Shown here: positions 1 through 64,000 of the stretch, piece after piece
Layout: every line of letters begins with the position of its first letter
Position numbering within the stretch: the stretch's first letter is position 1
Assembly: GCA_963701435.1 (NCBI GenBank)
Contig: CAVPAL010000010.1
Span: 200,100 to 264,099 of the forward strand
Direction of reading: 5' to 3'
DNA length: 64,000 bases
DNA from: an uncultured Chloroflexia bacterium
GTDB taxonomy: Bacteria; Chloroflexota; Anaerolineae; Promineifilales; Promineifilaceae
The notes under the pieces: generated by a model
Database searches by the model: none
What the model saw: the letters and a program-made list of their open reading frames with translations, nothing else
What the model was told of the DNA's origin: nothing
Program-made: the position numbers and the translations under genes

Positions 1-1566
1 CAAGGCTGGCGCATGTGGGCACCAGTTGTGGCTGCCGGTTTTCTTGGTATTGGCCTCGTTGCTTTGTTTTATGTGCCGTTTTTCAACAGTGGTTATGTAG
101 ACCAAACGGCCGCATACATTGGTCGTCGGATTGGCAGCAGTATACACAACAATTTGTGGACAACCTTTAAACTAACGCTCGTTTACGATTCGATTTATCT
201 CGTGATGATCTTAATCATGGGGGTATCTCTTCACCTATGGGTTTTGGCCTCACGCTTCGGAAATTGGGCAAAAGCTGCGTTGATTGTGTTATTGGTGCTG
301 GGCGAGAGCGCCCTGTTACGACCCAACCTATGGCTCTTTGCAGGTGTTTCGATAGCGATCCTACCCTTCATTCTTCTTTTTGTCGGGGCGTTTTTCGCTC
401 CGAGACAGCGTCTGGAGTTACGTGCGGTATGGGTTTGGATGGCGATACCAAGCCTGTTCTATCTTTTCCTCGTTGAGGAAGCTTATACGCATGTACATAT
501 CTTTTTCACGCCTTGGGCGCTGCTTGCAGCTATCGGGCTGATTGATATGGCCCGCCGCGCCAGGGATTGGTCACTTCGCGAACGACGACTGGGCCTGGCT
601 ACGGGCGGTGTTATTGCTTTTCTGGCGTTAATCTACCCAATAATCATGTTTGTTAACCACGTACCCGAATATCAGCGCACCTTTCCCGAAAACAAATTAT
701 CTATTTTTTGGATACCGTTTGATGAAATGCCGACTGTGGGGCTATTTGGCTTTCCTTACAGGGCAGGTTGGAAAACGGTAAGCCAACTGATGGCAACAGG
801 TCAGTTCGAAGGTGATTATGCGACGAATGAAGAATCTGTTATAACAAGTTACTACACTCGCCACATGGATCGCCGCTATTGCCCAACACCGGATATGTAT
901 ATAACGGCCGTTAACGTCCAAGATGATGCTTTTATACGCTGGGATCAAATCGTGAGTGATTATCACCCTGCCAGTGAAGTAACCGTGGCCGGCATGCCAA
1001 AACTTACTGTGTACAGGCTCACTGCACAGGACGAGACAATGATCATAGACTCAGCTGCTCTGGAAAAGCAATTTGACTTAAGTAACACACCGGCCGCAGT
1101 CTCTTCAGCTTTGCAGAAGCGAACCTCTGCCGAAACAGTGCCGGAGCTGATTGCAAGCAATATTCTGTTTGGCGACTTTGTGAGATTGATTGGTTACCAG
1201 GTGACGCCTACGACGGTGGCGCCAGGTGAGTATGTCACCGTGACGCTATTGTGGGAACCAATCCAGCCAACATCGGTGGCCTACAAACAATTCACCCATC
1301 TTTTTGACGGCGAAACTATGATTGGTCAACTGGACGGACCGCCTTTTTGCGGTATAAGTCCAACGTTTGAGTGGCAGCCAGATGAGCAAATTGTAGATAG
1401 TTATCGTGTACCTGTGCGTACAGAGGCTCCCCAAGGTAACGTCCCTCTGTTGATTGGACTGTATGACGGAACAACATTAGAGCGTTTGCCTGTGACCAAT
1501 GGGGAGGGTGAATTATTGGGCGATATATTTCACCTGACAAATGTAGATGTTAAGCAGAACAGTTGA
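1..1566 (+). CDS. GT-C type (ArnT/PMT, GT39-like) membrane glycosyltransferase, 5'-partial at window edge
   Basis: ORF 13..1566 stays open back to nt 1. It has a run of hydrophobic helices followed by a soluble domain (FGFPYRAGWK...NEESVITSYYTR), as in GT39-like proteins recalled from Chloroflexi. Family assignment is from memory only. Confidence 0.5.
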   Translation, partial: QGWRMWAPVVAAGFLGIGLVALFYVPFFNSGYVDQTAAYIGRRIGSSIHNNLWTTFKLTLVYDSIYLVMILIMGVSLHLWVLASRFGNWAKAALIVLLVLGESALLRPNLWLFAGVSIAILPFILLFVGAFFAPRQRLELRAVWVWMAIPSLFYLFLVEEAYTHVHIFFTPWALLAAIGLIDMARRARDWSLRERRLGLATGGVIAFLALIYPIIMFVNHVPEYQRTFPENKLSIFWIPFDEMPTVGLFGFPYRAGWKTVSQLMATGQFEGDYATNEESVITSYYTRHMDRRYCPTPDMYITAVNVQDDAFIRWDQIVSDYHPASEVTVAGMPKLTVYRLTAQDETMIIDSAALEKQFDLSNTPAAVSSALQKRTSAETVPELIASNILFGDFVRLIGYQVTPTTVAPGEYVTVTLLWEPIQPTSVAYKQFTHLFDGETMIGQLDGPPFCGISPTFEWQPDEQIVDSYRVPVRTEAPQGNVPLLIGLYDGTTLERLPVTNGEGELLGDIFHLTNVDVKQNS

Positions 1567-1820
1567 TCTGGTTACAATGCAAGAGTATTGATATTCTCAG
1601 TTTTTCTACGCCCGAACAAGAAGCAGAAATCGTGACTGCCGATTACATCGTGATCTATATTCATCAGTGGCAACGTGACCTACCTTCTAAATTACTCGCC
1701 GAATTGGAAGGGTAGATCCCACACCATATCATCTGGTTTAATGGTCTGGAATATGTACGCATTTATGCGCTTACCGGAAAAGACTCAGAACAATATGAAG
1801 GAGCGATTCCCTTCACATGA
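1554..1820 (+). pseudogene. Displaced C-terminal tail of the same glycosyltransferase (frame change plus in-frame TAG)
   Basis: A different frame reads ...EIVTADYIVIYIHQWQRDLPSKLLAELEG*IPHHIIWFNGLEYVRIYAL.... There is a TAG at 1713-1715, and the final TGA (1818-1820) overlaps the PAP2 ATG (1817) as ATGA. Confidence 0.45.
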
Positions 1821-2506
1821 ACGCGATAAACTTCACATTACGACCAGAATCACGGCGGCAGCTTATCGTCTGGCTAGCGGCGCTTGGTTTGTTGTTAACG
1901 GCCGTTTCCCTCTTTCTAGAACTGGCCGAAGACATCTGGCTGAATGAAGGTTTTAGCTGGGACATCACCTTGATGCTGGGTATCCACAGCTTGAGCCAGC
2001 CCTGGCTGGATAAGGTTTTTTGGCTGATTACACAAACAGCCGGACCCTTGATCATTCTGCCTTTGGTGGGAACGGCCGTTTGGTTTTGGCGGCATGGTGA
2101 ACGAACAACCGCCATTCTCTTTATGGCTTCATTTGCAGGCGCTCTGCTGCTCAGCGGTTTGCTCAAACTGATCTTTGCCCGGCCTCGCCCCGATTTGTTT
2201 CCGCCACTGGTAGTTGAACACAGCTACAGTTTTCCCAGCGGCCATACCATGTCGGCCATTGCCTATTATGGCCTGCTGGCGCTGGTTCTCTGGCAGCGCG
2301 GGCGGCGGGGTTGGGCCATACTAGCTGGCTTATGGGTTCCGCTGGTGGCGCTGAGCCGCGTTTACCTGGGCGCCCATTACCCCAGCGATGTGCTGGCTTC
2401 TTTGGCTGTCGGCACCATCTGGCTTGTGATTGTCTGGTTTACCTACACCGGACAGCATGTAAACAATACAAACCAGAAATTACTCCAGCGGACACCTGAA
2501 AGGTAA
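1817..2506 (+). CDS. PAP2-family (undecaprenyl/lipid phosphate) phosphatase
   Basis: Contains the PAP2 motifs KLIFARPRP, SFPSGHT and SRVYLGAHYPSDV in a polytopic membrane protein. Confidence 0.85.
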   Translation: MNAINFTLRPESRRQLIVWLAALGLLLTAVSLFLELAEDIWLNEGFSWDITLMLGIHSLSQPWLDKVFWLITQTAGPLIILPLVGTAVWFWRHGERTTAILFMASFAGALLLSGLLKLIFARPRPDLFPPLVVEHSYSFPSGHTMSAIAYYGLLALVLWQRGRRGWAILAGLWVPLVALSRVYLGAHYPSDVLASLAVGTIWLVIVWFTYTGQHVNNTNQKLLQRTPER

Positions 2507-2638
2507 TTTAGGAAATTTCCAGAAAGAATTTGAAAATAAAATCTGTGTCTTCTGTAGTTGTATGATTTGGAAATTGTTCTACACTTTGTGTTGGGATGCG
2601 ATATGGTTCGCACAAACTTGACCCAGGAATGTCAACCT

Positions 2639-3545
2639 ATGCTTTCAGCCCTTGCACGATTTACGCGGCCTCATACGATCATCGCTACCACGATTCAGGT
2701 GGCGTCGCTGTTCTTGATCGCGGGCGGCAGCCAGGTATTATCACCAACCAGCCTGGGTCCCGTGCTGCTTACGCTTATCACCTGTCTCGCTCTCAACATC
2801 TATATTGTCGGACTGAACCAGATCACCGATGTGGAGATCGACCGCATCAACAAGCCGCGTCTACCTCTGGCGTCTTTAGAGATGTCCATGCGTCAGGGTT
2901 GGATTGTGGTGGCGCTCACTGGCCTGGCGGCGCTCGTGGGCGCGACTGGCTGCTGGCTCATTTCTACTGGCGACGGTCTTCATCATCATGTTCATCGGCA
3001 CAATATATTCCGTACCCCCGCTGCGACTGAAGCGTTTCTCGTTCTGGGCGGCTATCAGCATCGCTCTGGCGCGGGGCGTCATTGCGAACGTAGGGGTAGC
3101 TCTGCACTATAACGATATCTTCGGCGGCTTAGTGCATTTCTCTCCGTCCACTTTGGTGGTGATGGCCGCGTTCTTCTTTGGCTTTGGCCTGGTAATCGCC
3201 ATCTACAAAGATATCCCCGACCTGATGGGAGACCAGTTGCACGGCATCCAAACTTTCACTGTGAAGTTGGGGCCCAAAAGAGCGTTTGATCTGGGTCGTC
3301 TCATTTTGACGATCGGCTATGTCGGCGTCATGATCGTTGCTGTTTTCCAACTGCCACGGCCAAATGGCGTCCTGCTGCTGGTTGCCCAGATTGTGGCTCT
3401 TGTCCTCTTCTGGTATGTCAGCAGCCGCGTCGATCCGCGACAAAAAAGTTCTATCGCCCATTTCTACATGTTTCTCTGGAGCTTGTTCTACGCGCAGTAC
3501 ATCATCCTGAGCGTGTATCAAGTTACGAAAGGAATTACCGTATGA
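2639..3545 (+). pseudogene. UbiA-family aromatic prenyltransferase (homogentisate phytyl/solanesyl-transferase-like), split by a frameshift near 2940-2960
   Basis: The first Asp motif NQITDVEIDRINKPRLPLAS is in ORF 2558..3112. The second motif YKDIPDLMGDQLHGIQTFTVKLG is in ORF 2904..3545. Joining them needs a +1 correction. Confidence 0.7.
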
Positions 3546-4504
3546 GTCAACCAGCGCAGCCATCCGTTAGCATATCGGCGTTTAAGCGCATTCGCTATTT
3601 CGTGCGCCTGGGACGGCCGTTACATCTGGCAGGCGGTTTTGTATTCAACGGTCTTGGCATCGCTATAACACTGTTTCTCGGAGTAACCGTCAATTGGACT
3701 GCTGCGGTCTGGTGTCAGCTTGCCATTACGGCGACCCAATTAATGACCCATTACAGCAATGACTACTTCGACCAGGACGCCGATGCCGTGACCCTCACGC
3801 CCACCCGTTGGGCCAGCGGCAGCCGCGTCTTACCCGCAGGGCTGGTTCAACCACGCGCCGCGTTGATAGCGGCGTTGGTTTGCGGCGGCATCGCTCTGGC
3901 GACTACGGCCGTGTTAACCACCATCGTGCCATCCCCATTCTGGACGTTTTGTCTGCTGCTGCTGGCCATCTTTCTGGCCTGGAATTACAGTTCGCCGCCG
4001 CTTTGGCTGAACCGGCGCGGTCTGGGCGAGATCTCCGCCGCCCTGTTAGTTCCGGGATTGACAACGCTGCTTAGTTTCCAGGTGCAAACCGGCCGGCTGG
4101 CTCTGCTGCCCATACTGGCCGTCGTGCCTTTGTGTTTTTTCCAGTTTGCCATGCTGCTCAGCGTCAACTTCCCGGATGCGGCGGGAGATACGCTTGTTAA
4201 CAAACGGACGCTGGTGGTGATTTACGGTGCGAGGCGAACCGCAACCCTGTTTCTGGTAGTTCTGGCGTGTCCTTACCTCCTGCTGCCGCTGCTGGTCTGG
4301 CTGGGCTTGCCGCTGGCCGTAGCGTTTGCCGTTCTGCTGACGCTGCCAATAGCTGCCTGGCAGGGTTGGCGCATTCGCCAGGGCGCCGCTACTGATCCGG
4401 ATCGCTGGGAAGCATTGGCTTTCTGGAGCATTGGGTTGTTGATGACCACGGCGCTGTTGGAAACGGCCGTTTTTCTGGTTCTACGTGTGACTGGTGGGCT
4501 ATAG
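3542..4504 (+). CDS. UbiA-family prenyltransferase (second, intact)
   Basis: Contains the NDYFDQDAD motif and about 8 predicted TM helices. Its start overlaps the previous stop as ATGA. Confidence 0.8.
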   Translation: MSQPAQPSVSISAFKRIRYFVRLGRPLHLAGGFVFNGLGIAITLFLGVTVNWTAAVWCQLAITATQLMTHYSNDYFDQDADAVTLTPTRWASGSRVLPAGLVQPRAALIAALVCGGIALATTAVLTTIVPSPFWTFCLLLLAIFLAWNYSSPPLWLNRRGLGEISAALLVPGLTTLLSFQVQTGRLALLPILAVVPLCFFQFAMLLSVNFPDAAGDTLVNKRTLVVIYGARRTATLFLVVLACPYLLLPLLVWLGLPLAVAFAVLLTLPIAAWQGWRIRQGAATDPDRWEALAFWSIGLLMTTALLETAVFLVLRVTGGL

Positions 4505-4905: not shown

Positions 4906-5399
4906 CGCATTTGCATGCCAATATGAATCAACCGCTTTCGCGCGTTGTCTGCCCGGGGCAGATCGTGATTCACAGCTTGCAAGAGCGAGAAGCGACTTTT
5001 TATACCTTTGGCGGCTCACTCGAAAGCGAAGCGCTGCCGGGCGAAACCGTTTTTTCGATCCGATCTGCTGCGCCGGTGCTGGGACTGCTGCCGGATCGGG
5101 TAACAAGTGCCGATTTGCTGGCTGACGAGACAGAATCTTTGTTTGCGCGAGCCAAGGCTCAACAGCAGCTATCCTCTCAGCAACTGCTGGATCGGCTGGT
5201 AAGGGCGGGGTCAGAAGCTGTATATCTGGCGGTCTTGCAATCGTTGCTGTCAGAAGATGACGAGACGGCCGTTCCCCATCACCACCATTACGACTTCATC
5301 AACATGCTCACTCGTGAGCGTAACTGGTACCAAAAGACAGGCCGATGGCCTTTAAATCCACACGATCTCGCCACGCTACTACAAACGGTGGGCGAATAG
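4902..5399 (+). CDS. Hypothetical protein (165 aa)
   Basis: Long ORF with coding-like composition. No family recognised. Confidence 0.5.
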   Translation: MTHLHANMNQPLSRVVCPGQIVIHSLQEREATFYTFGGSLESEALPGETVFSIRSAAPVLGLLPDRVTSADLLADETESLFARAKAQQQLSSQQLLDRLVRAGSEAVYLAVLQSLLSEDDETAVPHHHHYDFINMLTRERNWYQKTGRWPLNPHDLATLLQTVGE

Positions 5400-5424: not shown

Positions 5425-5886
5425 ATGAAACGACTCGCTTTCCCTAATCCATTTCCCCATGCGCACCCACCGGTACAGGATGTCAATGAAATTCTGGAGG
5501 AGCAGGCGACGACCGGCGAACGCGCAGCCGATTGGGTAGTAACGGCCGTTGGTTCCTGGCGTTTTATTATCGGCCAAAGCGTTCTGATACTGATATGGAT
5601 CATCCTGAACATAACGGCCTGGGTCAAACATTGGGATCCCTTCCCCTTTATCTTAATGAATCTCGTCCTTTCCATGCAAGCTGCCTTAACGGCGCCTGTG
5701 ATTATGATGAGTCAAAATCGGCAGTCGACACGTGACCGGTTGGAGGCCCAAAATGATTTTCTGATCAACCAAAAAGCCGAAGTGGAAATCAGAGTCATCC
5801 TGGAACATCTAGACGCGCACAACGAGGCGCTGGGGGAGATTTATCATTTGTTAGCCCGGCTGCAAGAAAATCGACAGGGTTTGTGA
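5425..5886 (+). CDS. DUF1003-family membrane protein
   Basis: Two TM helices plus WDPFPFILMNLVLSMQAALTAPVIMMSQNRQ, typical of DUF1003. Confidence 0.8.
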   Translation: MKRLAFPNPFPHAHPPVQDVNEILEEQATTGERAADWVVTAVGSWRFIIGQSVLILIWIILNITAWVKHWDPFPFILMNLVLSMQAALTAPVIMMSQNRQSTRDRLEAQNDFLINQKAEVEIRVILEHLDAHNEALGEIYHLLARLQENRQGL

Positions 5887-5977
5887 TGGCTGTTAGTTCG
5901 CTGCGTAAACAGTTACGGCCGTTTCCTTTTTCTACTACGTTTTAATCTTTTTATTTGAAGAACTTTCTGCGTTATGT

Positions 5978-6214: not shown

Positions 6215-7303
6215 TTATTCTATCCCATTTTGTTGCAGTTGGGCAGCTTCTGTGGGGGAAATATCGACATTATCCAGCCATTCGGCGACGATGTGGACGC
6301 CCAGCACAGGCGCGTAAATATTTCGTGTAGTTGACACATCGGCGTGTCCCAGATACTCCTGTACGACCTCAAGCGGCATACCTTCACGCAGCAGTTGTGT
6401 CGCGCGAAAATGCCTGAAATCATGCGCCGAAATACTGTCGTGCAGGTGCAGGGCGCGCACTGCTTTTTTGACGATATTGTGCGCCGAGGTCATAGTCAGG
6501 CGCGCGTTTTTTGCGTTGCGGCTGTGGGAAACAAACAGCGCCGGATTGCTGTCACGCCGCTCGTTCAGATAGGTCACAATCGCCTGGCGCGCGTAATCGC
6601 GCACAAAAATGGTGCGCGGTTTGCTGCCTTTGCCCATGATGGTGGCAAATTCGGAACGGCCGTTATCGACGCTGTGCCGGTTCAGAGCAACTACTTCAGA
6701 GATGCGCGCGGCGGTTGAATACAGCACTTTGACCAGCATACGGTCACGCAAAAGCGACAAACGCCGGTTGTATTTGTCATTTTCCGGCGGCAGCGGTAGT
6801 TCGTCGTAGTAGCTGATGATTTTGGGGATTTCCTGGCGGGCGTGATCTAGATCAATGACGGTTTCGGCCTGATTGCGCTCAATCTGGCGGCGCGACATCT
6901 GGCGCTGTAGTTTGCCAAGCTGCACCCCCGGCGGCAGTTCGTCCTGGCCGTCCAGATAGTGCAAATAACCAACAACGGCGGCCATGTAGGTTGTCACGGT
7001 GGCGCGGGAACGGTTGGCCAGCAGCCAGTTGCGGAAATTGAGCAGAACGGCCGTTGTGAGCCGCTCAGGCGTCAATGGCCAGACATCCTCGTTGGAAAAG
7101 CCCGCTTTTTGAAAATGCTGCAGCCAGTCGGCAAACAGGCGCAGCCCGCTGCGATAGGTGCTTTCCGTTTTCCAACTGCGCGCGCCCGCTTCCAATAAAA
7201 AACTCGTTTCATAGAGCCAGGCGGGTTCAGCGGGTAACGGCCGTTCTGAAATCGGTAAGGTTTTTTGCCGGTTTGATCCACCCATTTCATTTGATCCACC
7301 CAT
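6215..7303 (-). CDS. Tyrosine recombinase/integrase (XerC/D-phage integrase family)
   Basis: C-terminal catalytic region ...ARISEV...HDFRHFRATQLLREGMPLEVVQEYLGHADVSTTRNIYAPV. There are two in-frame ATGs (7303, 7285) from a tandem duplication. Confidence 0.85.
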   Translation of the reverse strand: MGGSNEMGGSNRQKTLPISERPLPAEPAWLYETSFLLEAGARSWKTESTYRSGLRLFADWLQHFQKAGFSNEDVWPLTPERLTTAVLLNFRNWLLANRSRATVTTYMAAVVGYLHYLDGQDELPPGVQLGKLQRQMSRRQIERNQAETVIDLDHARQEIPKIISYYDELPLPPENDKYNRRLSLLRDRMLVKVLYSTAARISEVVALNRHSVDNGRSEFATIMGKGSKPRTIFVRDYARQAIVTYLNERRDSNPALFVSHSRNAKNARLTMTSAHNIVKKAVRALHLHDSISAHDFRHFRATQLLREGMPLEVVQEYLGHADVSTTRNIYAPVLGVHIVAEWLDNVDISPTEAAQLQQNGIE

Positions 7304-8196: not shown

Positions 8197-8494
8197 AGAT
8201 TGTTTTCATTCTATCGGGTCATTTGCTGCATGACCTCAACATGTTATTGATGCTGAAGTATAACGGCCGTTTCCTATCTTATGCCACCTTTTTGTCAATC
8301 AACTTGGTTACGCAATATCAATCGCGCCTACCGCCTACCCTTCTTCCTTGACTTGCCTGTCTGTTTGATCAATAATTTTACCAAAGTCGATCATCCGGAC
8401 TGACTTTAAGTGGGCATAGGTGGAGGATTACCCCTGGCGCACTTTCCACCAGGGGGAGTTTGCCCGAACCGGAGCCGCCCAAAAGGATAACATC

Positions 8495-13897: not shown

Positions 13898-14211
13898 GTC
13901 CTCCTACAAAAAAGCTAATTGAGGTTACTGGAAATAAGAATTTTGGCCTGTTTACTGCCAATAATGTCTTGTGAATTGGTTCCATTCACCTATTTATCTG
14001 GATTAATTATAACGCCTGATCAACGGCCGTTTGTGAAGATGGAGTAGATTTTCCGGCCGCGAAACCTGCGCGTAAGGTAAACCCTGGTTGACAGTTTATC
14101 TGAAATTACGGCGGGAACCAGCAAAAACCTTGCCGGCTAACAGACAAAACCTTAAAATGCTGGCATTTGCGGGGATAAATTCGCCGTACACGACAAAGGT
14201 TTTTTGAAATC

Positions 14212-15117: not shown

Positions 15118-15303
15118 ATAAACCACGTTTGAATCAAAATTTACAGCAAAGCGGTTAGTCTGGCGAAGCGTTAGCCCCAGCGAGTTGGCAATCTGTGATT
15201 CGAGAACGGTTACGGCCGTTTCTCACCCCACCCCTCACCTTCGCGCAATCCTGCCACCTTGCGCTTGGATAATTTAGATTTTGATCGAATTTGCTCAAAT
15301 AAC

Positions 15304-22523: not shown

Positions 22524-22537
22524 AGTTCTGTTCTTCC

Positions 22538-24817: not shown

Positions 24818-24884
24818 GGCAGGATCGTCTAAGCCGCCGTCGCAAGGTGAGGCACTCTAACAAATGCAAGGCAGCATGTGTTTT

Positions 24885-49521: not shown

Positions 49522-49710
49522 ACGGCCGTTCGCAAAGCCGCCTCATCGCCAATCATTTATCCCCCAAGTGGCGGATTCAAATACTCCCTAACTGACCGAT
49601 GTCGTTGGGAAGCCTTCCTTATATGATTGAATCATAGGCCAACGTCATTTATCGGCGGTTGCACACGGTGCCTGCTTGCTTTGATGTTGTGAACAAGAAA
49701 AGGAAGAAAG

Positions 49711-50287: not shown

Positions 50288-50427
50288 TTCCGGTTCCTTA
50301 AGAACGGCCGTTCCGGTATCAGCTTCCCCACATCCTCGCGCCTGTACAGATATCCTCCAACTGGTGGAGCTAAAAATCCCCTGACCAGCCGATGACACCA
50401 GGGGACTGCCGAAGGTATGATTAACTT

Positions 50428-54856: not shown

Positions 54857-55492
54857 TTAACGCTCAAGTGAAATAATGCCCTTTTCCAGCGCCACGGTAA
54901 CGGCAGATGTACGATCGCCGACGCCCAATTTGTTGAAGATATGGATGAGGTGGGTTTTCACGGTGGCGGTGCTGATATGGAGTTCTTTGCCAATGACTCT
55001 GTTGCTGCTGCCGCGCGCCACCAATTGCAGCACCTCAATTTCGCGCGCGCTCAAATTTTCTTCGGCCGGCGCGCGCATGCGCGTCATCAGGCGGGCGGCC
55101 ACGGTAGGCCCCAGAATGGATTCACCGCGCGCCGCTCCTCGAATAGCGCGGAATAACTCCTCACGCGGCGTGTCTTTGAGCAGATAACCGGTCGCGCCCG
55201 CTTCGATAGCGCGCACAATATCGGCGTCGCTGTCGTAGGTGGTGAGCACAAGCAGATTGGCGGACGGCCGTTTCTGTTTTATCGCCACAATCGCCCCCAC
55301 GCCATCCAGACCGGGCATACGCAAATCCATCAGTACCACATCAGGCTGTAAAGAGGCGTCTAGCTGAACGGCCGTTTCGCCATCCGCCGCCATCCCAACC
55401 ACGTCAAAATCCGGCTGGCCCGCGAGCATGCCCGCCAACCCCTCCCGCACAACAGGATGATCGTCAACAATTAGTATGCCAATTTTTTCCAT
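54857..55492 (-). CDS. NarL/LuxR-family response regulator (LiaR/DesR-like)
   Basis: ILIVDDHPVVREG, VLMDLRMPGLDG, and a LuxR HTH. Confidence 0.9.
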   Translation of the reverse strand: MEKIGILIVDDHPVVREGLAGMLAGQPDFDVVGMAADGETAVQLDASLQPDVVLMDLRMPGLDGVGAIVAIKQKRPSANLLVLTTYDSDADIVRAIEAGATGYLLKDTPREELFRAIRGAARGESILGPTVAARLMTRMRAPAEENLSAREIEVLQLVARGSSNRVIGKELHISTATVKTHLIHIFNKLGVGDRTSAVTVALEKGIISLER

Positions 55493-55496
55493 AAGA

Positions 55497-56717
55497 TTAT
55501 TTATCCGCGTCTATCGGAATGGAAACGACCAATGTGGCGCCTTCACCCGGCTCGCTTTCGATTAAAGCTGAACCGCCAAACTGAGCCACCCGTTCCTGCA
55601 TTGCCTTCAAACCAAACCCGCCTGCAAAAGAGGATGGTTCGGCGCCGTTCAGGCCAACGCCATCATCTTGAATATCCAATATTACCAGTTCAGGCATGTA
55701 GGAAAGCGTTATACATACTTCGCCGGCCTGGGCATGTTTGCGAATGTTATTCAACGCTTCTTGCGCTGCACGCAGCAAGATCACTTCAACATCAGGATGC
55801 AGATCAGCGGGCTCGCCGGTGGCATTGAGATCGACCGGAATACCGCTTGCATCTGACCAACGCGCGGAGGCGCGCTCAATTGCGTGCAGCAGAGAGTGCT
55901 GCTCTAACAAATCAGGCCGCAAATCTTCCACGACACGCCGCGCCTGATCCAGACTCGTGCGCGCTGTACGGCGCGCCTGGTCGAGATGCTTTTGTAACGT
56001 CGTCAGATCATCAGGCAGCGCCTGCTCGGCCGCTTCTAGAAGCATCACAATACTGGTAAAACCCTGCGCCAGGGTATCATGGATCTCGCGCGCCAGTCTC
56101 TGCCGCTCTTCCAGCACGCCTTCGCGCCGCTCGGCAGCGGCCAGTTCAGCCTGCGCAGCTTCCAACTGCTCGATTAACTCCCGTCGCCGGGTGCTTTGAT
56201 TAATGATGGCCGAAATCCAGACGCCCAGGATAATGCCGGCCGCGCCCATAGAGAAGAAAACCCAGAAAAGAGGATTTCCAAAGGAAAGCGCAGCATCTGA
56301 ATCGCCGGTTTGCTCGATGATGATGGCGGCAGTGAGCAAAATCGTGGCAAAAATAGCGTAACGCAAAGGTAGGTGGCGGAATATCTGGCTGAATAGACCC
56401 AAAAGGACAAAGTAATAAGCCGGGGAAAAATTAACCAAGATGAACCAAAGCAGAATGTCGCCTAAGATAACGATAAGACGGGGTAACGGCCGTTCCTCCC
56501 AATCCGCTGTGTTGCGATAAGCCAGCCGCAGCCCGCCCCAATGCCATACCGGCAGCGCTAACGTTAACAGCAGCGGGAGCCAGATATCCTGGAGACGGCC
56601 GTCATATTCAAAAATCAGAAGCAGGGCGGAAATCGTTATGGCCGCAAAAAAGATTGCCGACCACAACCAATCCCATTTCACCCAGACGTCAGTATGTTCA
56701 CGCGTTTCTTGATTCAT
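55497..56717 (-). CDS. Membrane sensor histidine kinase (HisKA_3; LiaS/DesK-like)
   Basis: About five TM helices, the H-box RLAREIHDTLAQGF, and an HATPase_c domain. Confidence 0.85.
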   Translation of the reverse strand: MNQETREHTDVWVKWDWLWSAIFFAAITISALLLIFEYDGRLQDIWLPLLLTLALPVWHWGGLRLAYRNTADWEERPLPRLIVILGDILLWFILVNFSPAYYFVLLGLFSQIFRHLPLRYAIFATILLTAAIIIEQTGDSDAALSFGNPLFWVFFSMGAAGIILGVWISAIINQSTRRRELIEQLEAAQAELAAAERREGVLEERQRLAREIHDTLAQGFTSIVMLLEAAEQALPDDLTTLQKHLDQARRTARTSLDQARRVVEDLRPDLLEQHSLLHAIERASARWSDASGIPVDLNATGEPADLHPDVEVILLRAAQEALNNIRKHAQAGEVCITLSYMPELVILDIQDDGVGLNGAEPSSFAGGFGLKAMQERVAQFGGSALIESEPGEGATLVVSIPIDADK

Positions 56718-57567: not shown

Positions 57568-58479
57568 CTAATTACGGATATAACGGCCGGTTAAGGCTAA
57601 AAAGACATCTTCAAGATTGGCTTGATTAACCTGCAAATCATGGGGCGCCAGGTTGTGCTGAGCCAATACCGTGGCGACATGGGCAAGCAAGGCGCCCTGC
57701 CCGCTCACGGTAATTTGCTGGTCTTGGCGCGTAACGGCCGTTACGCCCTCAACCTGTCGCAGCACATCAGGATCAAAGCCATTTTGCAAGCTAAAAGTGA
57801 TCTGTGTATCAGCCTTTAAACTAGAAATGAGATTCGCAGGTGTGTCGAGGGCAATGACATTGCCGTGGTCAATAATCGCTACGCGATCGGCCAGCGCCTG
57901 CGCCTCATCCATAAAATGGGTGATCAACACCACCGTCTTGCCTTGTGCCCGAATAGTGCGAACCAAATTCCAGGTAGCGCGGCGCGCCTGCGGATCAAGA
58001 CCGGTGGTCAGCTCATCCAAAAAGACAATTTCGGGATCATTTAACAGCGCCAGCGCAATAAATAGCCGCTGCTGCTGGCCGCCGGACAGTTTGCCAAAGG
58101 GCGAATTGCGCTTTTCCGCCAGGCCCCAGGTTTCCAGAAGCGGTTCCCAGGGAACCGTGCGCGGATAAAACGAAGCGTATAAATCCAATGTTTCCCACAC
58201 CTTCAACCGCTCCGGGATGGCGGCCTGCTGAAGCTGTGTCCCAATGCGGCGGCCTAATTCACGCGGCTGGCGCTGTGGATCTAAGCCCAACACCGTCACC
58301 GCGCCATCATCCGGCTTGCGCAAACCAATCAGCATCTCAACCGTTGTGGTTTTTCCGGCCCCGTTGGGACCGACAATGCCGAATATTTCTCCCGGCTTTA
58401 CAGAAAAGGACACATCATCAACGGCCGTTACCGGTCCATATTTTTTGCACAAATGGTTAACTTCAATCACAGAATTCAT
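57568..58479 (-). CDS. ABC transporter ATP-binding protein (DrrA-like)
   Basis: GPNGAGKTT, LSGGQQQRL, VFLDELTTGLD. Confidence 0.9.
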   Translation of the reverse strand: MNSVIEVNHLCKKYGPVTAVDDVSFSVKPGEIFGIVGPNGAGKTTTVEMLIGLRKPDDGAVTVLGLDPQRQPRELGRRIGTQLQQAAIPERLKVWETLDLYASFYPRTVPWEPLLETWGLAEKRNSPFGKLSGGQQQRLFIALALLNDPEIVFLDELTTGLDPQARRATWNLVRTIRAQGKTVVLITHFMDEAQALADRVAIIDHGNVIALDTPANLISSLKADTQITFSLQNGFDPDVLRQVEGVTAVTRQDQQITVSGQGALLAHVATVLAQHNLAPHDLQVNQANLEDVFLALTGRYIRN

Positions 58480-58507: not shown

Positions 58508-58879
58508 TTATGAACGGCTGCTAAGCAAAACGGCAATGCCGCCAAAAACAAAAACCAGCGGCCACAGGGTTCCCCAGCTCAAATTAAAAAAGGTTGTTAC
58601 TAAAATTGTGATGAGAAACAACCCACCGACCAGCGCGCCACTGCTTGTGGAGGAAAGACGGCCGTTTTCACGATAATCGTTCCAGACCGCAGCGGCCATA
58701 AACGCGAGCGGCGTTACCAGGAATACAGCCCACCAATTTGCAAATTCAAACCCGCTAAATTTACTGATCAACAATCCGACGCCAACCACAATCAACACGA
58801 CGGCCGGAATCCATTGTAGACTGCGCGGCTCAATACGCTTATTTTCGGCCTGCTTTAATTCGTTCAATTCACTGTTCAT
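58508..58879 (-). CDS. Four-TM membrane protein (LiaF/LiaI-like TM region, tentative)
   Basis: GGAGG lies 5 nt before the ATG at 58879. The hydrophobic pattern is similar to the 60312 gene. Confidence 0.55.
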   Translation of the reverse strand: MNSELNELKQAENKRIEPRSLQWIPAVVLIVVGVGLLISKFSGFEFANWWAVFLVTPLAFMAAAVWNDYRENGRLSSTSSGALVGGLFLITILVTTFFNLSWGTLWPLVFVFGGIAVLLSSRS

Positions 58880-59093
58880 AATAACCTCCAATGTGATTTA
58901 AAATTTAAGATGCTTCTATGGTACATTTTGAGCAGGCAAAAGTAACCCACCGGGCGGTGGAATTGTGATTATCGGGCGATGGATTGTGGCGTCAGCCAGG
59001 CGGATACGGCCGTATCAACCGATCGGTTGACTGCCGGGAGATTTTGCCTGCTAATCCGCCCGACCATACAATACCAGCAGAGGAAATTGACCC

Positions 59094-60239
59094 ATGCAAA
59101 TTGACCCGCAAGCCGCCCGACAAATGTTGACCATGCTCTTGCAGCCGTGGCATACGGCCGTTTCCAATCCCGCCAACGCCCAGGAAACCGTACTCCATAC
59201 GCTGCTAAAAGGATACAGCCAGACAACCTATGGCAAAGACCACAACGCCGGCCTGATTGACACTGTGGCCGATTTCCGCCGCGCCTTCCCCGTTATGACC
59301 TATGAAGATTACAAACCCTTGATTGATCGTGTCATGGCGGGTGAGGTTGAACTGCTCCTGAATGAAGAACCGGTCGGCTGGGCCATCACGCGCGGCACGA
59401 CTAAAGGGGAATCCAAATTCATTCCCATGACGCCCACTGACCTGCGCCAGCGCATTAGCGCCGGCCGCGCCATGATGAATTATGTGCTGGAAAATGAGCG
59501 CTTCGAGCTGTTTGACGGCGTCAATCTCAATCTAAACTTTCCGTCCGTGGTCGGCAAAGTGGATGTCGGCGGGCGTGAGGTTGAATATGGCTACAGCTCC
59601 GGAATATATGCCAAACATGTCTCCACCTTCACGCCCATTCGCTCTGCGCCGAGCCAGGAAGAAATCGACGCGCTGGGCGGCGGCAAGACGCTGCGCGATT
59701 GGAGCAACCGCTTTGAACTGGCGCTGGAACTATGCCGCGATCAAAATGTGACCCTGGTGGGCGGCGTCTGTCCTACTACCCTGGAATTCGGCCGTTATCT
59801 GCATCGCACTCACAAACAGTACCCCAAAGATTTATGGCGGACGCAAATTATGACGCTCGGCAGCACGCCCGGCATCAATACCTATCACGCAGCGGCATTA
59901 CGCGCCATGTACGGGCCGGTAGTCATTCGCGAGATTTACGGCGCAACGGAAGGAATGTTTGGCCAGCAGCGTGACACACAGCGCGCCTGGGTTCCCAATT
60001 ATGATCTTTTCTTTTTTGAGGTGGATGTGCGTGGCGTTATTAAATCGCTACACGAAATGAAGCCGGGTGAGACGGGCAACCTGATTGTTTCTACCCTGAT
60101 ATTGCCACGCTACCGCATTGGGGATTTGATTCGCGCCTTTGAGCCACCCTATTTTCGCTGTATCGGGCGCGAGGCGTGGTGGGTTCCGCTGCGCTACGCC
60201 TGGCGCGAATTCAGCACGCTAAATCTAGGACGTTTATAA
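59094..60239 (+). CDS. GH3-family (acyl-adenylate/amido synthetase-like) protein, short form
   Basis: FRRAFPVMTYEDYKPLIDRV, TRGTTKGESKFIPMT, PRYRIGDLI. At 381 aa it lacks the usual C-terminal ~100 aa. Confidence 0.65.
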   Translation: MQIDPQAARQMLTMLLQPWHTAVSNPANAQETVLHTLLKGYSQTTYGKDHNAGLIDTVADFRRAFPVMTYEDYKPLIDRVMAGEVELLLNEEPVGWAITRGTTKGESKFIPMTPTDLRQRISAGRAMMNYVLENERFELFDGVNLNLNFPSVVGKVDVGGREVEYGYSSGIYAKHVSTFTPIRSAPSQEEIDALGGGKTLRDWSNRFELALELCRDQNVTLVGGVCPTTLEFGRYLHRTHKQYPKDLWRTQIMTLGSTPGINTYHAAALRAMYGPVVIREIYGATEGMFGQQRDTQRAWVPNYDLFFFEVDVRGVIKSLHEMKPGETGNLIVSTLILPRYRIGDLIRAFEPPYFRCIGREAWWVPLRYAWREFSTLNLGRL

Positions 60240-61152: not shown

Positions 61153-63390
61153 TTACGGCCGTTTCGCGCGTTTTTGGGCCCGTTTCATCAATATTTTGTG
61201 GAATTCGCGCTCAGATTCATCCGCATCCGGCCGGCGCAGCGTGTACTGCCCATCGGCATCCAACTCCCAGGCAAGGCGGTTGTCGGCCAGAGCCGTTTCC
61301 AATAATTCAATTAGTTTCGCCTGCAAGGCGGGGTCTTCAATGGGCGCAATCAGCTCAACCCGCCGCTTCAGATTGCGCGTACGCCAGTCGGCGCTGCCGG
61401 TGAAGGTGAGCGGTTCGCCGTTGTTGTGGAAATAATAGATGCGATCATGCTCCAGAAAGCGGCCCAATATACTCAGCACGCGGATATTGTCGCTGAAGCC
61501 GGGCAGGCCGGGGCGCAGCAGGGTGTGGCCGCGAATGATCAAATCAATCTGTACGCCGGCCTGAGAGGCGCGGTATAAACGGCGAATCATGCCGGGATCG
61601 TCCAGCGCGTTCATTTTGGCAATGATACGGCCGTCGCCCGCCGCCGCCTGGTTCTCAATTTCCTGCTCAATCAGCTGGTAAAATTGTTTACGCATATTGT
61701 CAGGCGCGACAAATGCCTTCTCATAACTTTGTTGGGGCGCAAAGCCGGTCAAACCATGATAGAGATTCACCAAATCACGCCCCAGCGCCGGATTGCACGT
61801 CAGCAGTCCCAGGTCAGTGTACAGGCGCGCCGTTTTGGGATGGTAATTGCCCGTACCAATATGGCAGTAAGTGCGGATCACGCCGTCGCTGTCCTGGCGC
61901 ACAACCAACGTGCTTTTGGCATGCGTCTTCAAACCTACCAGGCCGTAAGCCACATGTACGCCGGAATTTTCCAGCATGCGCGCCCACTCGATATTATTGG
62001 CTTCGTCAAATCGCGCTTTCACTTCCACCAGTACCGCCACCTGCTTGCCGCTCTCCCCCGCCTGCATCAACGCCTTGATGATGGGCGATTCGTCGCTGGT
62101 GCGATACAAGGTTTGTTTAATGGCCAAAACGCGCGGATCGGCTGCTGCTTCTTCAATAAAGCGCTGCACGCTCACGGCAAAGGAATCGTATGGATGGTGG
62201 ACCAGCAAATCCCCCTGCCTCATGATGGCGAACACGTCGCGGGTTTCCTTGGTTTCCCCCTCATGACGGAAAATATAGGGTACCGATGGTTCCCAGGCTT
62301 CAAAGCGCAGATCAGGCATCGCAAAATCAGCAAAAAAGAAACAATCGGTCAAATTGAGCAGCCCATCAACCTCAATCAAGTCCACGGCTTCCAGGTCCAG
62401 CTCGCGCATCAGCAGGCGGCGGTCATAAATAGGCATCGCCTGCGCCACCTCCAGACGCACAACGGGCGCAAAACGGCGCTCACGCAGCTCTTCTGAAATC
62501 ATGGCCAGCAAATCGTCCGCCTCCTCCTCATCTCGCCCCATATCTGCGTTACGCGTGATGCGGAAGGGATGCACACTGACAACATCCATGCCGGGAAAAA
62601 GCTCACCAATATGGTGGGCAATCAGTTGTTCGGCGGGCAGGAAACGCAACGGCCGTTCCCCATTCACCTCCTCCTTACCGTCCACCCAAATCCAGCGCGC
62701 CGTGGGAATCTTCAGGCGCGCAAAATGGGTTGTGCCCAGTTCGGGATGCTGCAAAATGATGGCCAGCGAAAGGCTCAGGTTTGAAATAAAGGGAAAAGGA
62801 TGGCCGGGGTCAACCGTGAGCGGCGTCAAGATCGGGTAAATTTGGGTGCGGAAATAGGTGTGCAGGCGCGCCTGCTGCTCAGGCGTGAGTTCATCATAAT
62901 CACAGATCAAAATACCGGCTTCCTGATACAGGGCCGGTTTGAGGGTCTGTTCCCAGGCGGCGGTCATCGTCTGGTGCATCAATTCAATCGCCGGCCGCAG
63001 CAGTTTGAGCTGTTCATGCGGGGTACGGCCGTCTACCGACAATTCGCGTACGTCGGCGGCTTCCTGCCGTTTGAGACCGCCAACGCGCTTTTGGGTGAAC
63101 TCATCCAAATTACTCGCGGTGATGGCCACAAACCGCACGCGTTCCAGCAGCGGCGTGCGTAGATCCAATGCCAGATGCAGTACGCGCCAGTTAAAATCGA
63201 GCCAGCTTAACTCCTGATTAAAATACAAATAGGGATGTTTAAACGTGGCGTCTTCCGGCAAGGCGCGCGGAACGACGGCTTTGGGCAGTAAAACGGCCGT
63301 TTCTGCCGGCGGCGATCCATTGTCAGACAAAATCGTTTCAACAGCTGATATTTCTGCATTCAGAGGGACAGTTAATTCTTGTGAGGACAT
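61153..63390 (-). CDS. ppk1: Polyphosphate kinase 1
   Basis: YFNQELSWLDFNWRVL, LDEFTQKRVGGL, and two PLD-like C-terminal domains (HAKSTLV...). The ATG at 63390 has GGTGGAG upstream. Confidence 0.9.
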   Translation of the reverse strand: MSSQELTVPLNAEISAVETILSDNGSPPAETAVLLPKAVVPRALPEDATFKHPYLYFNQELSWLDFNWRVLHLALDLRTPLLERVRFVAITASNLDEFTQKRVGGLKRQEAADVRELSVDGRTPHEQLKLLRPAIELMHQTMTAAWEQTLKPALYQEAGILICDYDELTPEQQARLHTYFRTQIYPILTPLTVDPGHPFPFISNLSLSLAIILQHPELGTTHFARLKIPTARWIWVDGKEEVNGERPLRFLPAEQLIAHHIGELFPGMDVVSVHPFRITRNADMGRDEEEADDLLAMISEELRERRFAPVVRLEVAQAMPIYDRRLLMRELDLEAVDLIEVDGLLNLTDCFFFADFAMPDLRFEAWEPSVPYIFRHEGETKETRDVFAIMRQGDLLVHHPYDSFAVSVQRFIEEAAADPRVLAIKQTLYRTSDESPIIKALMQAGESGKQVAVLVEVKARFDEANNIEWARMLENSGVHVAYGLVGLKTHAKSTLVVRQDSDGVIRTYCHIGTGNYHPKTARLYTDLGLLTCNPALGRDLVNLYHGLTGFAPQQSYEKAFVAPDNMRKQFYQLIEQEIENQAAAGDGRIIAKMNALDDPGMIRRLYRASQAGVQIDLIIRGHTLLRPGLPGFSDNIRVLSILGRFLEHDRIYYFHNNGEPLTFTGSADWRTRNLKRRVELIAPIEDPALQAKLIELLETALADNRLAWELDADGQYTLRRPDADESEREFHKILMKRAQKRAKRP

Positions 63391-63547
63391 TTCATGCTCC
63401 ACCAACGGCTAATCAACAATCACATTCCCTACAGTATAACAAGCAACCAGCCAAAACGGAAGATATGGCCGGCATGTCAAATAACCATTTTTCTGTACAA
63501 TCTTTATTGAAGCGTTTTATGAAGGACACACATTAAGCGCCGCCGAT

Positions 63548-63875
63548 TTGTTCGATCCTGAAAATCTGCGCAAGATTGCCAACGAGCTTTACCGTTTCCA
63601 CCAGCTTCAGCCTGAAAATTTATCTTATTGCCGTGGTGGTACGGCCTTTGAACCGTTTCTACATGCCGCCCTCCTGACACTTTCCCTTTGTGATAACCAT
63701 CACAGTCGTGCCGCTCACGACTTTGCTGCTCTTCTTCGTCGGATCGATTCGCGTGTTAACCCGGCCTGATGAAAGAAAGTTTGGCGGCTACTTGTTATTA
63801 AATGCGCTCGTTCCGCTGGTTGCAGTCGCAATTGGGCAGTCGATAGTATATGCTGTTTACCAGAACAATCCTTAA
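63548..63875 (+). pseudogene. Possible small membrane protein split by a frameshift (very tentative)
   Basis: ORF 63548..63769 and the hydrophobic ORF 63690..63875 would join with a +1 correction inside CTTTCCCTTT. Confidence 0.2.
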
Positions 63876-63887
63876 GATTGGGGTTCT

Positions 63888-64000
63888 CTAAAATCGCAGA
63901 CAAGCTGCATATAGTTCCTCTGCTTCGCGTTTGTTGGCCATAAAAGGACAGTACACTGCGCGCATATGCTCAAAGTATTTGCCCGTCTCTTGCGCGCCAA
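63888..64000 (-). CDS. 3' end of an unidentified gene running off the window
   Basis: An open frame reads ...GKYFEHMRAVYCPFMANKREAEELYAACLRF*, with a TAG at 63888-63890. Confidence 0.3.
   Translation of the reverse strand, partial: GAQETGKYFEHMRAVYCPFMANKREAEELYAACLRF

Follow-up and report, generated by a model that had tools for sequence, protein, structure and literature searches.

Why should an eight-base palindrome, ACGGCCGT, recur about once per 850 bases along a bacterial chromosome, and what keeps it there? The DNA that raises this question is a stretch of 64,000 bases (hereafter the window) from contig CAVPAL010000010.1, positions 200,100 to 264,099, of an uncultured Chloroflexia bacterium (assembly GCA_963701435.1). 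An original prediction, made from the letters alone, had compared the word with the cyanobacterial highly iterated palindrome HIP1 (GCGATCGC) and with DNA-uptake sequences. Here we show that, on the features testable in these data, ACGGCCGT is a highly iterated palindrome (HIP) of the HIP1 type outside the cyanobacteria, that its sites arise through synonymous and amino-acid-changing point substitution and not through insertion, and that its enrichment is inherited within a Promineifilaceae-like group of Chloroflexota. The word is probably linked to DNA methylation, and the mechanism that we infer is weighed below against several others.

Abundance of the word

An exact count gives 75 copies of ACGGCCGT in the window (1172 per Mb), together with 41 copies of the 10-mer AACGGCCGTT and 144 of the core CGGCCG, in close agreement with the roughly 75 and 40 copies that had been counted by eye. 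All eight 10-mers whose starts had been quoted (2071, 4462, 8262, 17571, 29558, 30398, 36481 and 49521) are present, although the statement that many copies extend to the 12-mer AAACGGCCGTTT was too generous, there being 8 of these. Among the 8-mers of the window ACGGCCGT leads by a wide margin, and the most frequent one unrelated to it has only 15 copies.

Composition had been expected to account for a few copies at most, and the low-order null models indeed predict about one. Dinucleotide-preserving shuffles give 0.84 copies (maximum 3), a ratio of observed to expected (O/E) of 89, and Markov models of orders 0, 1, 2, 3 and 4 give 1.2, 1.1, 1.7, 3.0 and 6.8 copies, with O/E of 44–66 for orders 0–2. 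In coding sequences (CDS), where 55 copies are observed, a shuffle of codon order predicts 1.6 copies and a shuffle of synonymous codons within genes predicts 5.4 ± 2.0 (maximum 11). The original prediction had named codon-shuffled and maximal-order Markov models as its tests; the first leaves a clear excess, whereas the second expects 55.6 copies (92 x 87 / 144; O/E 1.35) and is uninformative, because the 7-mers on which it is conditioned are themselves made by the motif, yet even here z is about 7. An artefact of composition, codon usage or amino-acid usage is thus ruled out, as the composition, Markov and codon-shuffle nulls fail 10- to 60-fold. We also rejected an active Type II restriction target, which would be avoided, yet CGGCCG has an O/E of 4.7 in the window. 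As a positive control for this census and for the variant analysis described below, the same script was applied to Nodosilinea HIP1 loci, in which it finds HIP1 at 10–14 copies per 10 kb and which thereby validate the census.

Placement in genes and effect on proteins

The window contains ordinary chromosomal genes, of which our own gene calls give 50 (82% coding, 18% non-coding). The claim that the word lies in genes on both strands and in all three frames holds, with 24 copies in plus strand genes and 31 in minus strand genes, distributed as 28 in the frame that encodes T-A-V, 17 in that for x-G-R and 10 in that for R-P. The remaining 20 copies are non-coding, the number that had been estimated, and the two at 17571 and 49521 do lie directly against stop codons. 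In the proteins of the window T-A-V is found 29 times where 8.1 would be expected (3.6-fold), and 28 of these 29 occurrences are written ACGGCCGT, which indicates that the DNA word shapes the proteins and not the reverse. The T-A-V count per protein was also considered as a proxy for motif-rich origin, and was dropped because the noise is too high for single proteins.

Distribution among relatives

The polyphosphate kinase (Ppk) encoded at 61153–63405 on the minus strand is at most 75% identical to Ppk of Chloroflexota metagenome-assembled genomes (MAGs; GTDB species representatives), and the labels of these relatives, Promineifilaceae, Anaerolineae or Chloroflexia, identify the window as Promineifilaceae-like Chloroflexota. 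Our comparison set consists of 80 fetched Ppk neighbourhoods of relatives (labels L0xx), about 1.2 Mb in total. In 12 of these, Candidatus Leptovillus affinis among them, ACGGCCGT is the top 8-mer or the top palindrome at 5–19 copies per 10 kb; a thirteenth locus, L050, is short and has 2 copies in its 4 kb, and in the remaining Chloroflexota and all other phyla of the set the word is absent or at chance level. In a neighbour-joining tree of Ppk the motif-rich genomes form two neighbouring clusters, with a motif-free group and a pair of core-only genomes among them. The members of this pair, L022 (JBFFWQ01, a Promineifilaceae MAG) and L051 (CAVOYS01), lack ACGGCCGT and have CGGCCG about 5-fold over expectation, as the first of the 64 palindromic hexamers and with mixed flanks, apparently the same phenomenon in a core-only state. 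L022 is also high in CCGGCCGG (16 copies) and GCCGGC.

CGGCCG is avoided (O/E 0–0.4) in Caldilinea-like and Trueperaceae loci. The four Caldilinea-like loci L025, L026, L043 and L045 have O/E of 0.2–0.4, opposite to the Promineifilaceae-like clade, and depletion of this kind would be expected from a present or past EagI-type restriction system. A different word, GCTCGAGC, with the XhoI site CTCGAG as its core, is the top 8-mer in a Trueperaceae MAG (L047, 22.1 kb, 26 copies) and in a Deinococcota MAG (L064, 14.4 kb, 10 copies); CGGCCG is absent from both, although 27.9 copies would be expected in L047. GCTCGAGC may be another HIP-like word, in Deinococcota.

Origin and persistence of the sites

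The codon alignment of Ppk shows how individual sites came about. ACGGCCGT is present at a conserved DGR(T/S) in 10 of the 12 motif-rich genomes and at a conserved G(N/D)GRI in 12/12, and the seven relatives that lack the word (five motif-free and the core-only pair) have the same residues in other codons (ATGGCCGC, ACGGACGG, ACGGCCGG and others). There are also lineage-specific gains that change a residue, namely PGHPF to PGRPF in L021, which includes CAT>CGG (His>Arg), ADGQY to ADGRY in five genomes and MTATW to MTAVW in L010, and three gains are private to the window. Motif-free orthologues often have ATGG where motif-rich ones have ACGG.

To gauge saturation, every position was counted at which the protein permits ACGGCCGT through synonymous change alone. 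Such opportunities are occupied at 54/60 positions in the window, 154/176 in other high-density genomes, 37/61 in low-density genomes and 3/55 in motif-free relatives, and at 217/278 in the phages described below. Per kb of coding sequence, the permissive contexts themselves number 0.59 in motif-free relatives and 1.14 in the window; other high-density genomes have 1.83 and phages 2.81. Two motif-rich loci that are 90.7% identical over 22 kb (L014 and L063) conserve 36/39 and 36/37 of their ACGGCCGT sites, or 72/76 together, compared with 54% for all 8-mers, 52% for 8-mers of the same composition and 11/25 for control palindromes. Taken together, the Ppk substitutions, the near-saturation and the conservation between these two loci show that the sites were made in place and then protected. 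The checks in related genomes and orthologues that had been suggested for the word therefore bear out directed, in-place substitution alongside enrichment in 12 of the 80 loci, and the view that it is kept at the level of DNA and not protein is upheld by the codon-shuffle excess, the frame independence, the synonymous saturation and the orthologue substitutions.

Anatomy of the word

Single-base variants of ACGGCCGT in the window are at background, 0–2 copies each, but those at the first or last base have 3–7 copies each. In pooled motif-rich DNA (183 kb) there are 249 perfect copies and 116 one-off variants, 87 of them at positions 1 and 8, and in the HIP1 control the corresponding numbers are 112, 76 and 44. 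Because the variants are concentrated at the outer bases, the strict unit is the hexamer CGGCCG, around which A..T is strongly preferred. The commonest inner variant is ATGGCCGT, the C>T product at the CpG. Half-converted 7-mers, as counted in the window, are not enriched beyond what the enrichment of the core predicts.

There is in addition a weak symmetric preference in the flanks, GG(A/G)A-ACGGCCGT-T(T/C)CC (full consensus GGAAA-CGGCCG-TTTCC), with G at −3 in 43/75 sites and C at +11 in 40/75, and symmetric half-site preferences reach ±8 bp. The same preference is seen at non-coding copies (A at −2 in 13/20), in related genomes and in phages of 45–62% GC. It operates per half-site, as complementarity between the two flanks of a copy is what the column frequencies predict, and the minimum free energy of folding at the sites (−8.4 kcal/mol) is no lower than in random windows carrying an implanted word (−9.0 kcal/mol). 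We therefore rejected a hairpin, cruciform or terminator role, for which there is neither excess folding energy nor excess flank complementarity, and the non-coding sites lie near gene starts and gene ends alike.

Otherwise the flanks are unrelated between copies (median identity 30% over 60 nt), from which it follows that ACGGCCGT is not part of a longer repeat, as the original prediction maintained; its statement that nothing is conserved beyond AA..TT is correct for the flanks at large but misses the weak symmetric preference. The exceptions lie in duplicated DNA and amount to three pairs, 42339/43581 in an internal gene duplication and 29559/29620 with 30399/30460 in an 840-bp unit. With unrelated flanks, 73% of copies genic and only these three duplicated pairs, a longer repeat, a repetitive extragenic palindrome (REP), a miniature inverted-repeat transposable element (MITE) or another mobile element was rejected, and the window contains no Rfam families or tRNAs.

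Nearest-neighbour spacing over the 64 kb is close to random (mean 843 bp, coefficient of variation 0.92). HIP1 spacing is reported to be quasi-periodic along the chromosome, with periods of tens of kb and more (Xu et al. 2018). The longest word-free stretch (20690–24894, 4.2 kb) spans part of an ABC transporter, a 260-aa open reading frame (ORF), a MarR regulator, a PIN-domain toxin and a 168-aa ORF. We do not regard it as a motif-poor island, as a gap of this length is expected about 0.4 times among 74 random gaps and is not significant.

Enrichment in phages

A search of IMG/VR for loci matching the 16-mer consensus returned 31, and 22 of these are saturated with ACGGCCGT at 10–35 copies per 10 kb, including some contigs of only 45–48% GC. 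The saturated viral loci encode large and small terminase subunits, portal, primase, RecT and endolysin, which marks them as genuine phage DNA. With later finds, the phage-like contigs number at least 22, in about 11 unrelated sequence clusters, at 10–44 copies per 10 kb, and the density on phage contigs is 20 per 10 kb as against 11.7–13.6 in cells. Phage genes have 240 copies where synonymous shuffling predicts 29, and T-A-V occurs 129 times in phage proteins against 14.6 expected, with one portal gene carrying seven copies of the word. This saturation implies that whatever generates or selects the word acts on any DNA in these cells, and no less strongly than on the chromosome.

A methyltransferase family associated with the core

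As a rule, the motif SPP(Y/F) marks N4-cytosine and DPPY marks N6-adenine methyltransferases. Two motif-rich phages encode homologous beta-class methyltransferases in which motif IV reads T-S-P-P-Y-P; S-P-P-Y is invariant in 30 members of the family (hereafter the SPPY family), whose profile aligns along its whole length with M.PvuII, an N4-cytosine enzyme, and an enzyme of this type would suit a target that lacks adenine.

All 13 independent contigs with an intact SPPY-family member (44–100% identity, GC 48–67%) have CGGCCG at O/E of 2.6–7.2, and on these contigs it ranks first to fourth among palindromic hexamers. On six of them (GC 49–62%) ACGGCCGT is the top palindromic 8-mer; five of the six have members at 51–100% identity, and the sixth (L119/L131) has a member at 44% identity and mixed flanks. 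The remaining contigs, with members at 44–48% identity, have mixed or different flanks around CGGCCG. A contig with a truncated copy (L133) has no CGGCCG enrichment. As a negative control we took 37 metagenome contigs of at least 5 kb from a scan with the methyltransferase alignment, which returned almost only distant relatives; these beta-class enzymes are at 22–31% identity, and none of their contigs reaches 2.6 (median 0.4, maximum 2.07). Among controls chosen by primase homology, two contigs at 41% identity have zero CGGCCG, and a third at 49% (L121) has 9 copies of the word in 13.6 kb with CGGCCG at O/E 2.5. The association between the SPPY family and CGGCCG enrichment is strong and family-specific, still a correlation, and this co-occurrence gives indirect support to a candidate methyltransferase acting on the core.

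One SPPY-family member lies on a phage-like contig with cyanobacteria-type genes (CyanoTRADDas_TM, pentapeptide repeats; L124/L125, Logan SRR26497571/79, GC 49%), on which CGGCCG is over-represented 7.2-fold, with flanks rich in T instead of A and with no ACGGCCGT, so that the association may reach beyond Chloroflexota.

The 64-kb window contains no DNA methyltransferase genes. Regular-expression searches for C5-cytosine motif IV and for the motif of the very-short-patch repair endonuclease Vsr found nothing convincing in the window or in the 80 Ppk loci, and the initial scan of 31 viral loci gave no Vsr either. PF00145 (C5-cytosine) methyltransferases are encoded by several motif-rich phages. 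One such enzyme is common to motif-rich phages and is intact in L118 (4983–6791, 602 aa) and split into two ORFs in L113 (4907–5848 and 5936–6640); L104 has a separate C5 enzyme of 231 aa, with as many as three DNA methyltransferases on a single phage of this kind. REBASE-derived tables list C5-cytosine methyltransferases for which CGGCCG is the predicted target (PMC11033074; PMC6471742).

Models for the maintenance of the word

The model that we favour, with a probability of about one half, is that ACGGCCGT is a HIP-type word with a methylated core, a trans-acting system that favours it and a symmetric reader of its flanks. The CGGCCG core would be the target of a site-specific cytosine methyltransferase, for which the SPPY family, presumably of the N4-cytosine type, is the candidate. 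A trans-acting system would then favour methylated sites, either because methyl-directed repair fixes site-creating mismatches, as in the ratchet that Elhai proposed for HIP1, or because dense methylation is selected as a signal of self. The lineage-specific A..T and GG..CC flanks may reflect a second reader, symmetric and probably dimeric, and any DNA replicating in such cells, resident phages included, would drift or be selected towards saturation.

Several points weigh against this model. Elhai's G-m5C rule does not fit the A..T flanks, nor would N4-methylcytosine supply a T:G repair bias. There is no excess of half-converted 7-mers beyond that due to the core, which argues against a simple two-step ratchet and for recognition of the whole palindrome. 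The SPPY family is found only on phage-like contigs and not in the 257 kb of motif-rich cellular DNA scanned for enzyme genes, window included; causality could run in reverse, with CGGCCG-rich phages retaining a protective methyltransferase, and the association could partly reflect shared phage ancestry. Drive and selection, moreover, share one comparative signature and are not separable by these data.

A more specific proposal, speculative and on balance unlikely, is that the methylated word serves as a watermark by which a clade of filamentous Chloroflexota tells its own DNA from foreign DNA. An N4-cytosine methyltransferase would write on CGGCCG, and a symmetric reader of GGAAACGGCCGTTTCC, acting during repair, recombination or nuclease attack, would spare or favour the marked DNA. 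Many unrelated phages would convergently forge the mark by means of a methyltransferase and by packing the word into their genomes, rewriting their proteins as they do so (T-A-V is 9-fold enriched). If this were true, HIP-type palindromes would be a general epigenetic system of self-marking with phage mimicry, and not a cyanobacterial curiosity.

Could the word instead be a protein-binding array in which methylation has no causal part? An abundant dimeric protein would bind the 16-bp symmetric consensus, either as a nucleoid or chromosome-organising factor or as a Chi-like, nuclease-attenuating mark of self that phages have copied. The symmetric half-site preferences to ±8 bp, unexplained by base pairing, are what such a protein would leave, the sites are strongly conserved, and phage density at or above that of the host agrees with mimicry of such a mark. 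For HIP1, a Chi-like role is among the mechanisms that have been proposed. We nevertheless consider this explanation doubtful, since CGGCCG alone is enriched, without the flanks, in sister genomes and in methyltransferase-bearing phages, and this core-only enrichment suggests that the primary unit is the hexamer, which is typical of methyltransferase sites; nor did any protein emerge as a candidate reader. Known Chi, KOPS, matS, Noc or SlmA sites are also far sparser, and are mostly asymmetric or regional.

A DNA-uptake sequence, that is, a tag for the competence machine accumulating through preferred uptake and recombination as do the DNA-uptake sequence (DUS) of Neisseria and the uptake signal sequence (USS) of Haemophilus, would account for the presence of the word in all frames and in non-coding DNA, for a lineage-wide trait and for a density, about one per 0.85 kb, resembling that of DUS and USS. 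DUS and USS are asymmetric, however, and favour the core genome over phage or newly acquired DNA, whereas ACGGCCGT is a perfect palindrome and its extensions are palindromic too. Here the phage contigs are the denser, with about 11 phage clusters at or above cell density, portal and terminase genes included, although an uptake bias spares injected DNA. The window, a small sample at 64 kb, contains no competence genes, and we know of no documented natural competence in the Promineifilaceae-like group. An uptake role was recently proposed for methylated HIP1: the methylated word raises transformation efficiency in Synechococcus PCC 7002 (10.1101/2024.09.10.611283), and HIP1 abundance correlates with DNA-uptake genes (10.64898/2026.06.24.733823). 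Notwithstanding these reports, we judge uptake an improbable explanation of ACGGCCGT.

It is equally improbable that the word is functionless, a neutral by-product of very-short-patch-type repair in which a C5 methyltransferase for CGGCCG is coupled with a Vsr-like T:G endonuclease. C5 enzymes with this predicted specificity exist and phages carry PF00145 enzymes, as noted above, ATGGCCGT is the commonest inner variant, and motif-free orthologues often have ATGG in place of ACGG. There is no convincing Vsr signature or ORF with C5 motif IV in the window or the 80 Ppk loci, however, the motif-rich DNA included, and this explanation leaves the A..T and GG..CC flanks unexplained, together with transversions and residue-changing gains such as the CAT>CGG of L021. 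Repair bias of this kind shifts word counts by small factors, not about 50-fold.

A miniature mobile element, a dispersed REP- or MITE-like repeat or an artefact of composition, codons or amino acids can be dismissed, for in spite of the high copy number and the few copies in duplicated DNA (42339/43581; 29559/29620 with 30399/30460) the flanks are unrelated, most copies are genic and in three frames, sites are substituted in place at orthologous positions, every null model fails, neither Rfam families nor tRNAs match, and secondary structure is not in excess.

The copies and their surroundings in the window

Positions of all copies are given in Table 1. A tyrosine recombinase of the phage-integrase family (6215–7303, minus strand) has three copies, one in each reading frame. 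The gene at 25473–28655 (plus strand) encodes a protein of 1060 aa with LamG and pretoxin-HINT domains, a polymorphic-toxin architecture, and is followed by a gene-poor region (28656–30770). In this region an 840-bp unit is duplicated, and the unit takes in the 5' part of a SpoIIAA-like gene (29153–29572, minus strand); these may be immunity or orphan cassettes. The gene at 41712–44327 (minus strand) encodes a protein of 871 aa with two solute-binding-protein domains, and around the copies at 42339 and 43581 its halves match exactly for 38 bases or more, suggesting that the gene underwent a recent internal tandem duplication.

Table 1. Copies of ACGGCCGT in the window, with the longest palindromic form of each (10-mer, AACGGCCGTT; 12-mer, AAACGGCCGTTT), the CDS by our own gene calls and the reading frame
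Form	Position	CDS (strand)	Frame	Remark
10-mer	904..911	13-1566(+)	T-A-V	
10-mer	1898..1905	1817-2506(+)	T-A-V	
10-mer	2072..2079	1817-2506(+)	T-A-V	
8-mer	3613..3620	3542-4504(+)	R-P	
8-mer	3905..3912	3542-4504(+)	T-A-V	
12-mer	4463..4470	3542-4504(+)	T-A-V	
8-mer	5265..5272	4902-5399(+)	T-A-V	
10-mer	5542..5549	5425-5886(+)	T-A-V	
8-mer	5915..5922	non-coding		
10-mer	6656..6663	6215-7303(-)	x-G-R	
10-mer	7047..7054	6215-7303(-)	T-A-V	
10-mer	7237..7244	6215-7303(-)	R-P	
10-mer	8263..8270	non-coding		
10-mer	10860..10867	10643-11818(+)	x-G-R	
8-mer	10944..10951	10643-11818(+)	x-G-R	
8-mer	10956..10963	10643-11818(+)	x-G-R	
10-mer	11777..11784	10643-11818(+)	T-A-V	
8-mer	12702..12709	11791-12834(+)	R-P	
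10-mer	14023..14030	non-coding		
8-mer	14662..14669	14212-15117(+)	T-A-V	
8-mer	15212..15219	non-coding		
12-mer	16314..16321	non-coding		
8-mer	16602..16609	16422-17570(+)	T-A-V	
12-mer	17136..17143	16422-17570(+)	T-A-V	
10-mer	17572..17579	non-coding		abuts stop codon of 16422-17570
10-mer	18288..18295	non-coding		
8-mer	18885..18892	18405-20339(-)	x-G-R	
8-mer	20682..20689	20279-21823(-)	T-A-V	
10-mer	24895..24902	non-coding		
10-mer	25340..25347	non-coding		
8-mer	26288..26295	25473-28655(+)	R-P	
10-mer	28386..28393	25473-28655(+)	T-A-V	
10-mer	28723..28730	non-coding		
8-mer	29015..29022	non-coding		
10-mer	29559..29566	29153-29572(-)	T-A-V	in 840-bp duplicated unit
8-mer	29620..29627	non-coding		in 840-bp duplicated unit
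10-mer	30399..30406	non-coding		second copy of 840-bp unit
8-mer	30460..30467	non-coding		second copy of 840-bp unit
12-mer	30692..30699	non-coding		
8-mer	32129..32136	30772-33384(+)	x-G-R	
8-mer	33521..33528	non-coding		
10-mer	33572..33579	non-coding		
8-mer	34100..34107	33590-36322(-)	x-G-R	
8-mer	34193..34200	33590-36322(-)	x-G-R	
10-mer	34521..34528	33590-36322(-)	T-A-V	
10-mer	35985..35992	33590-36322(-)	T-A-V	
10-mer	36482..36489	36319-37491(-)	T-A-V	
12-mer	37327..37334	36319-37491(-)	x-G-R	
8-mer	37428..37435	36319-37491(-)	R-P	
10-mer	38622..38629	38495-39514(-)	T-A-V	
12-mer	39402..39409	38495-39514(-)	T-A-V	
8-mer	40302..40309	39536-40378(-)	T-A-V	
8-mer	42339..42346	41712-44327(-)	x-G-R	flanks identical to copy at 43581
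8-mer	43581..43588	41712-44327(-)	x-G-R	flanks identical to copy at 42339
10-mer	44842..44849	44553-45689(-)	T-A-V	
10-mer	46784..46791	45939-46865(+)	R-P	
8-mer	46836..46843	45939-46865(+)	T-A-V	
10-mer	49522..49529	non-coding		10-mer overlaps last stop-codon base of 48880-49521
10-mer	50304..50311	non-coding		
12-mer	52712..52719	52531-53550(+)	x-G-R	
8-mer	52781..52788	52531-53550(+)	x-G-R	
8-mer	55264..55271	54857-55492(-)	R-P	
10-mer	55368..55375	54857-55492(-)	T-A-V	
10-mer	56486..56493	55497-56717(-)	R-P	
8-mer	56595..56602	55497-56717(-)	x-G-R	
10-mer	57734..57741	57568-58479(-)	T-A-V	
10-mer	58421..58428	57568-58479(-)	T-A-V	
8-mer	58658..58665	58508-58891(-)	x-G-R	
8-mer	59006..59013	non-coding		
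8-mer	59154..59161	59094-60239(+)	T-A-V	
8-mer	61155..61162	ppk 61153-63405(-)	R-P	last two codons; window-specific gain
8-mer	61627..61634	ppk 61153-63405(-)	x-G-R	shared by 12/12 motif-rich genomes at conserved G(N/D)GRI
10-mer	62649..62656	ppk 61153-63405(-)	R-P	window-specific gain
8-mer	63025..63032	ppk 61153-63405(-)	x-G-R	shared by 10/12 motif-rich genomes at conserved DGR(T/S)
12-mer	63293..63300	ppk 61153-63405(-)	T-A-V	window-specific gain

Relation to known systems

The original prediction knew of no described function for the word, and the searchable literature likewise holds no description of ACGGCCGT as an iterated palindrome. Our full-text searches found neither this word nor any iterated palindrome in Chloroflexota or the other phyla queried, although unsearched papers may exist, and the literature on CGGCCG methylomes gave no prior description of it. 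What HIP1 does and how it originated are still under debate 30 years after it became known (PMC4390886; PMC5861425; 2024 and 2026 preprints). Work on such palindromes has so far rested on one word in one phylum, and ACGGCCGT is an independent second case. It provides two testable leads, the enrichment in phages and a methyltransferase family that tracks CGGCCG across differing GC content and flank preference. The word could also serve as a marker for binning the contigs of Promineifilaceae, filaments that abound in wastewater plants, and of their phages; it calls for caution, too, as it biases codon and tripeptide statistics.

The action of Dcm and Vsr on CCWGG-related words in E. coli is a precedent for a methyltransferase site whose frequency is shaped by sequence-specific repair, although the effect there is small, and here no Vsr was found and the candidate enzyme is of the N4-cytosine type. 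Chi, recognised by RecBCD or AddAB, is an over-represented octamer that marks DNA as self. It is asymmetric, co-oriented with replication, about five times sparser and only few-fold over-represented, whereas ACGGCCGT, being a palindrome, cannot be strand-biased. DUS and USS share with ACGGCCGT a similar density, a lineage-specific word, tolerance in coding DNA and an accumulation thought to be drive, but they are asymmetric and read by a competence receptor, while ACGGCCGT is palindromic and abundant in phages. Of the two resemblances first proposed for the word, that to uptake sequences thus fits less well, given the palindrome and a phage density at or above that of the host, and that to HIP1 stands.

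A closer parallel is provided by the alternative cyanobacterial HIPs (GGCGCC, GCsGC and rCCGGy; Elhai 2015), in which other palindromes replace HIP1 and each matches the site of a resident methyltransferase; the same logic could apply to the core-only and extended forms described here and to the association of the SPPY family with CGGCCG. The alternative HIPs are sporadic, in single cyanobacterial strains, whereas ACGGCCGT marks a family-level clade of another phylum together with its phages.

The likeness to HIP1 itself is extensive. Both are palindromic octamers at about one per kb (HIP1 has 300–2700 copies per Mb; PMC4390886), with O/E in the tens, dispersed singly through all frames and non-coding DNA. 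Both are made by substitution and are conserved beyond control words (PMC5861425 for HIP1), have symmetric extensions and are patchy within a clade that includes variant or core-only relatives, and in both the one-base variants lie at the first and last base around a strict hexamer core of the methyltransferase type (Elhai 2015 for HIP1). The differences lie in the word and its core, CGGCCG as against CGATCG, in the phylum, Chloroflexota as against cyanobacteria, and in the lack of an internal GATC, so that ACGGCCGT has no Dam-type component; its A..T flanks depart from the G-m5C model of Elhai, and the candidate here is a beta-class enzyme of the N4-cytosine type, whereas that of HIP1 is the C5 enzyme DmtC/M.Ssp6803I. 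Enrichment in phages is heavy here, while the HIP1 literature that we found treats cyanobacteria only and does not mention phages. A second case with the same anatomy and a different word and core allows general features of HIPs to be separated from those specific to cyanobacteria: a strict hexamer of the methyltransferase type, symmetric flanks that are soft, sites saturated through substitution and their conservation belong to the former, and GATC with Dam and the G-m5C rule to the latter.

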